64,000 bases of DNA from an uncultured delta proteobacterium (GTDB lineage: Bacteria > Desulfobacterota > Binatia > UBA9968): assembly GCA_963847445.1 (NCBI GenBank), contig CAWJZV010000002.1, forward strand, positions 32,001-96,000, in the 5' to 3' direction. Position 1 is the stretch's first letter. Each line of letters begins with the position of its first letter. The translations under genes were made by a program, and so were the position numbers. Under the pieces are notes generated by a model, which worked only from the letters and a program-made list of their open reading frames with translations, was not told the origin of the DNA and ran no database searches. Positions 8,187 to 10,139 of the stretch are shown here, in pieces.

Positions 8187-10139
8187 TTATCGGCTCGCCG
8201 TCTTGTCCCGGCTGGAGATCGGTGCTGTCTGCGCACTCATCGCGGGATTCATAATCGAATAGATCACCACGCGGTCGCTCGCCTCGCGATCTTCGCCGCG
8301 CAAGCGCACGCGCACGCGGTCTTTTTCTGAGCTCGGAATATTTTTGCCGACGTAATTGGGCTTCACCGGCACTTCGCGGTGGCCGCGGTCGACGAGCACG
8401 GCTAAGCGCACCGACTGCGGCCGGCCCGAGCGAAAGATGATGCTCAACGCGCTTTTCACCGTGCGGCCGGTATAGATCACGTCGTCGACTAGAACCACTT
8501 CGCGATCTTTCAGGCTGGGCGGTCCGAGATCGGGATCGCTGGGGACCATGCGCCGGAGTTCGTCGCCGGAGCCGTAGATTTCGATCTCGCCCAGCTCCGG
8601 TCTGCGTTTGCGCTGCGCTTCGATCGCATTGGCGATGCGTTGGGCCAGGAGCGAGCCGACACTGCGCACGCCAAGAATCAACAACCGGTCGGGGTCGCGG
8701 CAGTCGCGCAAAATCTGCCGGCTCATTTCGCCAAGCGCAGCCTCGATCTCGTCTCGGACATGAGTATCCGCTGCGCGCTGCTCGCTCGTCGGCTCGTAAC
8801 CCAACTCTTCGGCTTCTTTGATCGAGTCGAACAAGGCCAGCTCGCCCTTGTCCCACCAATCGCGCAACGTCTCGCTGAGCGTGGCGTCGAAGGACGAATA
8901 GCGTTTGGCTTTGACATTGCCGACATAGTCGACTTTGAAACGATGATCGCAGTAGTCGCAGCCGAGGATCAGCGCGCCCATAGGGTCGGCGAAATAGATG
9001 CGAAAGCGCCGCTCCGTCGATGCCGGCTCTTTCACCGTGATGCAGTTGGCATTATGGCACTTGGCGCCGATGGGTTCAGGGCTGCGATAGGAACGGTTGG
9101 CCCTATTCGTCGCGGGCTGCTGCGCGCGATTGCTGCGGAATAGAAATTCGAGCAGCGCCATGCGCACCGGCACACCGTAAGCGGCTTGTTTGAAATAGAT
9201 GCCGCGCCGGTCCTTGTCGAGTTCCGGCGACAGTTCATCGACACGCGGCAACGGATGCATCACCACGGTATTCTGAAAACGCTTTTCCTGGAGAAACTCC
9301 GGACCGATGGTCGGATAGTTGCCGTTGGCGGCGCCCTCTTTCATCCGCTCTTTCTGTTTCCGGGTCATGTAAAAAGCGTCGTAGCGCAGGCCGGTCGCCA
9401 TGGTGCTCAGCTGGGATTGGATGACCTTGTCCACTTGCGTATAGAGCGCCAGCTGATGCGGCTGCTTCGGCGTTAAATATAAAGCGTCGGTTTCGGTCAC
9501 GACGGAATTCAAATCTCCCGAAGCCACCGGCGCAAAGCCGTAATCGTACTCCCGCTCCAGCCGCTCGATCACATACTGCGGCAGCTCCATGCCGTTAGCG
9601 GCCAGGGTCACGACGTTAGCGCCGAAGCGCGCCAGCGCATAGACCAAAGAATGGATGGTCCGGCCGTTCTTGAGATCGCCGCACACGACTACCGTCAAGC
9701 CTTTGAGATCGCCCTTCTCCTTGCGCAGCGTATAAAGATCGCACAGCGTCTGGGTCGGATGCTCGTGACCGCCGTCGCCGGCATTGATCACCGGCACATC
9801 GGCATGCTCGGCCATCGCTTGCACCGCGCCGTCCCAATAATGACGCACGACCAACACATCGGCGTAGCTCGACACCACCTTGGCCGTGTCGGCCACGGTC
9901 TCGCCTTTGGCCGTCGAGGAAGCTTTCATGTCCGAGCAGGAGATCACCGAGCCGCCGAGCCGCTGCATGGCCGATTCGAATGACAGCCGGGTGCGCGTGC
10001 TCGGTTCGTAGAACAACGTCGCCATGATCTGCCCGGCGCCGACCCGGTCGGCGCGCAGCTTGTCGGCGCCATCGGCCAGCGCAAAGATCTCTTCGATCTC
10101 ATCGTTGGTCAGGTCGGCAATGGAAATCAGGCCGCGCAT
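8187..10139 (-). CDS. pyrB: Aspartate carbamoyltransferase fused to a PyrI-like Zn domain, an Ada-like module and a PyrR-like PRTase domain
   Basis: [45 protein letters not shown]...[29 protein letters not shown]. Confidence 0.9.

Follow-up and report, generated by a model that had tools for sequence, protein, structure and literature searches.

An aspartate transcarbamylase carrying a PyrI-type zinc domain and a PyrR-fold domain in one chain in an uncultured Binatia bacterium

Domain architecture of the fused chain

The window, a stretch of 64,000 nucleotides from an uncultured delta proteobacterium of the class Binatia (assembly GCA_963847445.1, contig CAWJZV010000002.1, positions 32,001 to 96,000), carries an operon in the order PyrR-binding leader RNA, pyrR, a fused gene for aspartate transcarbamylase (ATCase), carA and carB (Table 1). 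The fused gene is a single open reading frame (ORF) in the window's ORF listing and translation, and its 650-residue product consists of four parts: an ATCase catalytic chain, a PyrI_C zinc domain, a 45-residue linker subdomain and a PyrR-type phosphoribosyltransferase (PRTase) domain. This protein is intact and the sole ATCase of its genome, holds the PyrI-type zinc domain and the PyrR-fold domain in cis, and is conserved under selection.

Family searches delimit these parts. Pfam places OTCace_N (PF02729, 167.8 bits) at residues 2-139 with an E-value of 2e-49, OTCace (PF00185, 72.7 bits) in two stretches with E 4e-20, PyrI_C (PF02748) at residues 360-404 with 26.8 bits against a cut-off of 23.4, and Pribosyltran (PF00156) at residues 464-602 with E 2e-19; the ATCase, PyrI_C and Pribosyltran domains for which a first-pass annotation of the DNA had proposed a hidden Markov model (HMM) scan are all present in the fused ORF. 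Among the NCBIfam models, TIGR00670 (asp_carb_tr) scores 291.1 bits against a cut-off of 236.95 and NF002032 scores 275.2 against 263, and the PyrR model NF003549 is reached marginally, with 141.4 bits against 138 over residues 463-627; the protein stays under the cut-offs of four other PyrR models. The model for fused PyrB-PyrI, NF009916, yields 95.7 bits against a cut-off of 800 and covers residues 40-197 only, within the catalytic part.

The PyrI N-terminal domain (PF01948) gives no match in the fused protein at Pfam E-values up to 0.1, and judged by this domain content the protein is not a PyrI. Its zinc domain precedes the effector domain, the reverse of the order in PyrI. The first-pass annotation had described the catalytic, zinc and PyrR parts, which stand, and had overlooked the linker subdomain and the reversed order. 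All of the motifs that it listed are in place: CHNANC...CDYC (C361/C366/C394/C397), DRGHRE (584-589), LGEMSRQIL (469-477), EIEIYGSGD (518-526), and a 10-letter PRTase motif located at residues 551-560 of the translation.

The catalytic chain retains the STRTR (47-51), H127/Q130, R160, R260/Q262 and HPLPR (295-299) positions without variation in 38 aligned sequences, and we take these positions to be equivalent to the corresponding numbered residues of the E. coli enzyme. Structurally it comes closest to the catalytic chains of P. abyssi, M. jannaschii and E. coli, with 36-39% identity and a template-modelling (TM) score of 0.8 on the target; Foldseek aligns it to P. abyssi 1ml4 with E 6e-25 and a target TM of 0.81, and to E. 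coli 1d09_A with TM 0.80. The nearest catalytic folds thus belong to PyrI-using ATCases, a likeness shared with the E. coli class B enzyme, which is assembled from PyrB trimers and PyrI dimers. By HMM, motifs and fold, the fused protein is assigned to the ATCase catalytic family with an active-looking catalytic chain. An insertion of about 30 residues lies in the aspartate domain (residues 216-249, window 9393-9494) just before the TR.Q.ER motif, with a predicted local distance difference test score (pLDDT) below 50. The insertion opens with DALYLTPKQ, which resembles the DAFYMTRKQ downstream of it in the manner of a partial internal repeat, and it is common to divergent fused proteins and to a 468-residue ATCase-zinc form in another genome (G006); in a further form (G036) it is shorter.

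The zinc domain is of the PyrI type by three routes, an HMM match, a profile match to PDB chains and the predicted fold, as had been claimed from the letters. Its four cysteines are invariant across the 38 aligned sequences. A profile built from 26 sequences of the domain finds 12 distinct PyrI chains in the PDB (E 3e-5 to 6e-3) and aligns C361/N363/N365/C366/C394/C397 with C109/N111/N113/C114/C138/C141 of the E. coli regulatory chain, so that the same CxNxNC...CxxC motif and fold are shared with E. coli PyrI residues 108-150. An AF2 model of the zinc domain plus linker reaches a pLDDT of 87 and a predicted TM score (pTM) of 0.73. In Foldseek, the top 23 rows listed for the zinc-domain model are all regulatory chains, with root-mean-square deviations (rmsd) of 1.3-1.9 A over 42-45 columns and E 0.07-0.45; in VIA, the two best rows are likewise regulatory chains, with Z 4.5 and 3.6.

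E. coli PyrI ends 3 residues past the aligned zinc domain; the fused chain continues into the linker subdomain. Residues W428, L434, F437, A443 and P450 of the linker are invariant in the 38 sequences, and the subdomain ends in a 17-residue motif. Pfam returns no match on the linker alone at E-values up to 10. A resemblance to N-Ada (residues 26-68 of 1u8b_A, Z 3.0, rmsd 1.9 A over 43 residues) was set aside as too weak; the Ada cysteines are absent, and the likeness is probably just that of a common small fold. The same subdomain also occurs in the 468-residue ATCase of G006, which has no PyrR domain.

The C-terminal domain matches solved PyrRs with E 1e-31, in agreement with the PyrR type earlier claimed for it. 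The similarity to PyrR structures (1a3c, 1non, 1ufr, 1w30, 4p80-4p86) runs over the full length of the domain and includes the ribose-phosphate loop and the DRGHRE..P..Y.GK dimer loop; it would extend to the dimer if the predicted pairing holds. Conservation was compared across 41 fused domains, 37 neighbouring stand-alone PyrRs and 77 canonical representatives, the last number counting one row (C_P0155) that is a mis-included ATCase fragment and was dropped from the tree. Within the ribose-phosphate loop L.DDV..G.T, the D, D, V, G and T are kept in 100% of the 41 fused domains; DRG.RE.P is kept in 98%, and the Y.GK segment is also retained. The loop Arg (TGRT) is found in 78% of the fused domains and is replaced by W in the Binataceae-type clade.

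Other positions that stand-alone PyrRs conserve are changed. The helix Arg of R..HE, present in 97% of the neighbours and 78% of the canonical set, gives way to a varied position whose most frequent residue is E (frequency only 0.34), and the conserved Glu that follows it is Arg or varied. In the main fused clade, V or a range of residues replaces the TRG-loop Arg (97% of neighbours, 73% of canonical PyrRs), and the YRDD loop, whose RDD is kept in 97-99% of stand-alone PyrRs, reads YG.GDE; the divergent fused proteins P0144 and P0158 retain YRDD. The mean net charge of the N-terminal helix is -1.2 in the fused domains, against +1.2 in the neighbours and +0.7 in the canonical set. RMAHEI and DVTPYRDD, with which the first-pass annotation had contrasted the fused domain, are indeed read in the adjoining stand-alone PyrR (ORF 10450..10863 (-)), and the loss that it claimed at the R..HE helix and the YRDD loop holds against neighbours and canonical PyrRs alike. 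The account of kept and lost positions relies on these conservation contrasts. Compared with stand-alone PyrR, a protein of about 180 residues that acts as an attenuation protein and weak uracil phosphoribosyltransferase (UPRTase), the fused domain has lost the helix and YRDD positions and belongs to a separate clade. It scores 141 bits with NF003549, where the stand-alone PyrRs of the genome reach 187-192, and identity across the domain is 60-93% within the main clade.

A quick maximum-likelihood tree with 158 rows unites the 41 fused domains with P0124 and P0144 in one group (Shimodaira-Hasegawa-like approximate likelihood ratio test, SH-aLRT, 97) and places the neighbouring PyrRs in two clades among canonical PyrRs; P0158 sits elsewhere on a long branch, and its position is not interpreted. 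Small groupings found among the fused domains recur in the sub-trees of the neighbours. The separate clade and these parallel groupings indicate that the domain is PyrR-derived, old and inherited alongside pyrR; it is no recent copy of the adjoining pyrR, and the earlier suggestion of a duplicate finds no support. On motif content, fusion and clade, the domain is not a canonical PyrR. When two copies of residues 340-650 are co-folded, a score of 0.50 is obtained (0.50, 0.53 and 0.49 in the separate runs) against 0.02 for the best control. At least 88% of contacts are consistent between runs, with a partner pLDDT of at least 73, and the predicted symmetric interface (550, 561-562, 565-566, 569, 575-579, 588-595) is confined to the PyrR domain, where it occupies the RE.P loop and the helix that follows the phosphate loop.

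Conservation and distribution of the fusion

The fusion is genuine and conserved, and it is not an assembly artefact. The closest relative, locus L020, is 94% identical to the window at the nucleotide level over 6.2 kb, and in it the reading frames of pyrR, the fused gene (650 aa), carA and carB are all unbroken. Gaps in the window relative to L020 amount to 19 bases, nearly all single. Two of them fall inside the fused gene, where one extra base lies near 8784/8785 and one is missing near 8750/8751; together they scramble about 11 residues (451-462), after which the frame is restored, and no stop arises. At this site the 96%-identical P0002 and 22 other aligned sequences of the family share an in-frame reading that the window lacks. 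Short-read contigs from three different studies point the same way: an A is inserted behind 8750 in runs X1, X4 and X6, and one base is omitted at 8785 in runs X1 and X6. One contig of run X4 (record 21, window 8548-9164) spans the junctions between the catalytic, zinc, linker and PyrR parts. Such contigs also omit the extra carA bases at 7160, 7459, 7558, 7877 and 7986, and the extra pyrR bases likewise. The runs contain at most 42% of the sampled words, and the reads therefore derive from relatives and not from the window strain. The local indels suspected near 8740-8800 by the first-pass annotation are thus real, as L020 and the short-read contigs attest, and the stop that might have accompanied them is not created.

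Homologues, which had been suggested as a check on whether the parts are separate or joined, are single genes and favour the fusion. A search with residues 340-650 returns 690 proteins at E<=1e-3; among the 120 matches listed, all have both PF00185 and PF00156, and 105 are 641-665 residues long. When 185,579 species, each represented by one genome, were scanned with an alignment of the zinc domain plus linker, 41 loci were obtained. In 36 of these an uninterrupted frame of 641-729 residues runs over the catalytic, zinc and PyrR parts; contig ends truncate three others (L045, L046, L053), and the remaining two are frameshifted in the catalytic part (L040, L060). With these 36 species-level loci and a genome assembled as a single contig, the architecture sought in relatives is found. 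Two apparent exceptions fall away. The stand-alone zinc-PyrR proteins P0122 (327 aa) and P0128 (313 aa) both start at a Met within the C-terminal helix of ATCase (MAL..FL) and are therefore truncated gene calls, and an apparent split gene in G174 consists of two pieces that lie at two contig ends.

Of 61 genomes sampled from the class to which the window belongs, 20 carry the module, and the pattern is all-or-none by family: 5/5 in f1, 6/6 in f6, 6/6 in f91, 1/1 in f87 and 1/1 in f89, with none in the other 12 families. One of the class carriers is the single-contig genome, with a frame of 647 residues. By source name the carriers are Candidatus Binatia, Binataceae, metagenome-assembled genomes labelled 'delta proteobacterium' or Syntrophobacter, and Methylomirabilota, and a 50%-identical member is attributed to Candidatus Acidoferrales; all are uncultured. 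After clustering at 50%, few representatives have the module, namely the full-length P0124, P0144 and P0158 and the fragment P0130. For most of 201 genomes sampled from the phylum, the match is confined to the catalytic part and mostly lies in open frames of about 305-345 residues. Three class relatives (G215, G226, G235) have open frames of 808-814 residues around the module, about 160 residues longer than usual.

Two forms stop short of the full architecture. G006 encodes an ATCase with zinc domain and linker (468 aa, L019 2773-4179 (-)) that lacks the effector domain and is followed by pyrC, and G036 encodes an ATCase with the zinc domain (422 aa, L018 3421-4689 (-)), again without effector domain, followed by carA-carB. 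Both may represent either intermediates or products of domain loss. With the G006 protein as query, a search limited by its word index finds only 2 ATCase-zinc-linker proteins without PyrR.

Operon and genome context

The window's genome spans 7.19 Mb and is 91.8% complete. No second ATCase is found in it, the only other carbamoyltransferase being an ornithine transcarbamylase (OTCase), and the fused gene is therefore the housekeeping ATCase. The fused gene is also the sole PF02748 match in the genome, and PF01948 has no match in the whole genome, a control having detected it in 7 known genomes; the absence of a PyrI N-terminal domain that had been claimed from the letters accordingly extends from the protein to the genome.

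A leader RNA of the PyrR-binding attenuator type (RF00515, Table 1), in which a binding loop, a terminator hairpin and a U-run are recognized, lies upstream of the stand-alone pyrR. The RNA placed by the first-pass annotation at 10988-11021 falls within this RF00515 match. The same family lies upstream of pyrR in L020 (55.4 bits), and it is full-length in 5/5 further loci (L024, L029, L032, L047, L055) at 41.8-53.2 bits, just under the gathering threshold; Rfam at that threshold gave 1 match in 12 loci, and these 5 of the 12 were matched in E-value mode. Kept in the window and in 6/6 relatives examined, the leader agrees with the attenuation role ascribed to the stand-alone PyrR. No second RF00515 match occurs within 7500-12000 of the window, which includes the interval between pyrR and the fused gene.

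The stand-alone pyrR stands directly upstream of the fused gene in 37/41 fused loci, the other 4 having no upstream DNA. In the window NF003549 matches its first half, and the L020 orthologue is one intact frame of 192 bits. A second canonical stand-alone PyrR is encoded elsewhere in the genome (L002 1456-1998 (+), G000 contig C4), with 180 residues and 187 bits to NF003549. No upp (PF14681) exceeds its Pfam cut-off in the 91.8%-complete genome (best 24.9 bits against 27), and UPRTase activity may therefore rest on the PyrR paralogues.

Table 1. Features of the fused gene and its operon in the window
Feature	Position	Strand	Remarks
Fused ATCase gene	8187..10139	(-)	single ORF, 650 aa
ATCase catalytic chain	9123..10139	(-)	residues 1-339; carbamoyl-phosphate and aspartate domains; PF02729, PF00185, TIGR00670
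Flexible short stretch	residues 339-348	(-)	pLDDT < 50
PyrI_C-type zinc domain	8928..9077	(-)	residues about 355-404; four invariant cysteines; PF02748
Linker subdomain	8790..8927	(-)	residues 405-450; beta-beta-helix-beta-helix; no Pfam family
Out-of-frame stretch	8751..8785	(-)	two compensating single-base differences; residues 451-462, first strand of PyrR domain
PyrR-derived PRTase domain	8250..8786	(-)	residues about 452-630; PF00156, NF003549, matches to solved PyrRs
C-terminal tail	8190..8249	(-)	residues 631-650; variable, predicted disordered; pLDDT < 50, no conservation in the alignment
PyrR-binding attenuator leader RNA	10913..11024	(-)	RF00515, 53.9 bits (gathering 54), E 9.3e-6, full model 1-115
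Stand-alone pyrR	10350..10900, start approximate	(-)	single-base indels near 10630 and 10873; ORFs 10450..10863 and 10350..10706 are two PyrR halves
carA	7071..8182	(-)	starts about 5 nt after the fused-gene stop; broken by several single-base insertions; L020 frame about 405 aa
carB	3764..7007, lower end approximate (from L020)	(-)	broken by single-base indels; L020 frame 1094 aa

Across 3764-10900 the window differs from close relatives by numerous single-base indels, for the most part added bases, and these break pyrR, carA and carB. The genome's OTCase is likewise split into two ORFs by single-base indels (G000 contig C24, L003 1107-2079). The indels look like sequencing or assembly errors rather than marks of pseudogenes, and ORF-based annotation therefore under-calls the genes of this genome. 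As regards transcription, only four short contigs of RNA run X17 (152-267 nt, with 4-7 differences) fall on the fused gene; they come from a relative's library and are no proof. Beyond the leader RNA, a 65-residue ORF at 11632-11829 (-) begins MPRANRHYLPGHIWHITHRCHQR... and appears truncated; its start may resemble the N-terminus of transposases of the IS200-like tyrosine type associated with repetitive extragenic palindromes (REP).

A candidate sensing module and its rivals

The known quaternary types of ATCase set the frame for interpretation. In class A ATCases, which hold an inactive dihydroorotase (PyrC'), the recruited fold differs from that of the window protein, the association is non-covalent and there is no zinc anchor domain. 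The window protein nevertheless resembles them in that a pathway protein has been recruited as a non-catalytic ATCase partner, as a 2015 transcarbamylase review describes for PyrC' (PMC4581275). That review distinguishes three prokaryotic types, with dihydroorotase, with PyrI (separate or fused) or as a bare trimer; a variant of the second type is the PyrB-PyrI fusion of Thermotoga maritima (Chen et al. 1998, cited in PMC4581275), and the words phosphoribosyl and PyrR do not occur in the review. Like the Thermotoga enzyme, the window protein joins catalytic and regulatory parts in one chain; unlike that fusion, which contains a whole PyrI, it has the zinc domain only, followed by a PyrR-fold domain. 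Relative to class B enzymes, it lacks the PyrI N-terminal allosteric domain, its effector being a PyrR/PRTase fold placed C-terminal to the zinc domain, and it adds the 45-residue subdomain within a single polypeptide. Pairs of effector domains are predicted that could bridge trimers as in class B.

With moderate confidence, we favour the reading that the C-terminal module is a nucleotide-sensing regulatory module that replaces the allosteric domain of PyrI, in cis on the housekeeping ATCase. In this arrangement, the zinc domain would dock on the catalytic chain as the PyrI zinc domain does, and the PyrR-derived domain would take the place of the PyrI N-terminal domain, binding a nucleotide or phosphoribosyl pyrophosphate (PRPP) through its retained ribose-5-phosphate loop, with the identity of the ligand suggested by PyrR precedent. 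Through the PyrR-type dimer interface, the domain would pair with its counterpart in a chain from another catalytic trimer, generating a hexamer of fused chains in which two trimers are bridged by three dimers and ligand binding shifts activity. A review (PMC7430163) describes PyrR as binding RNA through a basic concave surface and responding antagonistically to uridine mono- and triphosphate (UMP/UTP) and guanosine mono- and triphosphate (GMP/GTP). The likely effectors of the fused enzyme would be those of PyrR: UMP/UTP would inhibit, and a purine nucleotide or PRPP would act as antagonist. The fused domain would have given up RNA binding and, probably, UPRTase activity, and attenuation of the operon would be left to the stand-alone PyrR encoded just upstream.

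Several observations weigh against this regulatory reading. The reversed domain order may impose a geometry different from that of E. coli ATCase, and the full-length model is only moderate (pLDDT 75.8, pTM 0.65). The Binataceae-type clade has SGWT in place of TGRT, which weakens a universal phosphate-binding role for the loop. The mean charge of the whole domain is +2.8 in the fused set against -1.3 in the neighbouring PyrRs; the fused domain being the more basic overall, charge alone does not exclude RNA binding. The dimer mark is reached by 20/30 proteins solved as one-chain pairs and by 1/23 solved as single chains, counts that hold only roughly with our own alignment, and because PyrR dimers are solved the modelled pairing may reflect memory of, or likeness to, solved PyrR dimers rather than binding. 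Finally, with no canonical upp over its cut-off in the 91.8%-complete genome, there is room for a salvage role of one of the PyrR-type domains.

An unlikely alternative is a structural pseudo-enzyme, in which the PyrR fold has no ligand role and only dimerises, holds two trimers together or stabilises the enzyme. Inactive dihydroorotase plays a comparable structural part in Pseudomonas-type ATCases. The homodimer predicted through the PyrR domain would serve such a role, the catalytic-type substitutions vary by clade and include the phosphate-loop Arg, and the forms of 468 residues in G006 and 422 residues in G036 show that an ATCase with the zinc domain, with or without the linker, exists without an effector domain. 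The strictness of the DDV..G.T loop in 41/41 fused domains, together with the 60-93% identity of the main clade, is however more than dimerisation seems to need.

A bifunctional enzyme, in which the C-terminal domain is an active UPRTase that joins de novo synthesis to salvage without allosteric coupling, is about as unlikely. It would account for the PRPP/ribose-phosphate loop kept in 41/41 fused domains, for the marginal match to NF003549, a model named for bifunctional PyrR/UPRTase, and for a genome with no upp over the cut-off. Set against this, the window's clade has replaced both the TRG-loop Arg and the RDD of YRDD, positions conserved in at least 97% of the 37 neighbours and in 73-99% of the canonical set, and the Binataceae-type clade carries W for the loop Arg. 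The two canonical stand-alone PyrRs of the genome could, moreover, supply UPRTase, and a bifunctional enzyme leaves unexplained a zinc anchor domain whose only known role is to bind the catalytic chain.

Under the regulatory reading, an additional coupling can be imagined. The fused domain shares its dimer loop with the free PyrR of the adjoining upstream gene and, besides sensing nucleotides, might swap partners with it, the enzyme sequestering or releasing the attenuation protein according to ligand or conformational state; we regard this as improbable. If true, partner exchange would physically couple feedback on the enzyme to transcription attenuation of the same operon. It is more doubtful still, to the point of being very improbable, that the fused domain still binds the pyr leader RNA, which would give the enzyme a direct part in attenuation or translational control: PyrR-type character extends over the whole domain, its overall net charge is positive, and a PyrR-binding RNA is present in the same operon, but the R..HE helix motif has been replaced by acidic or neutral residues with the accompanying shift in helix charge, a dedicated stand-alone PyrR is encoded upstream wherever upstream DNA is available, and no further RF00515 match lies between pyrR and the fused gene. 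The view that an assembly or frameshift artefact has joined separate pyrB, pyrI-like and pyrR genes, which an indel-rich window with broken pyrR, carA and carB and two indels in the fused gene could have invited, has virtually no probability and is already refuted by the same uninterrupted frame in 36/41 independent loci, by the single-contig genome and by short-read contigs of three studies that bridge the junctions and remove both indels without a stop.

ATCase is a textbook allosteric enzyme, and here the zinc anchor of PyrI is kept and the effector domain is swapped, in the opposite order, for another nucleotide-binding fold, that of the pathway's own RNA-binding regulator. If the fused domain regulates, the allosteric machinery of ATCase is modular, the fused enzyme is a natural domain swap in which transmission of an effector signal through the zinc domain can be tested, and an RNA-binding regulator and PRTase has been turned into the sensor domain of an enzyme. 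Full-text searches, which extended neither to subscription journals nor to 1.7 million of the PMC articles, found no description of an ATCase-PyrR fusion, and the fusion is apparently undescribed. Public records label these proteins only as 'aspartate carbamoyltransferase catalytic subunit' or 'phosphoribosyltransferase family protein', an annotation that the present finding corrects.

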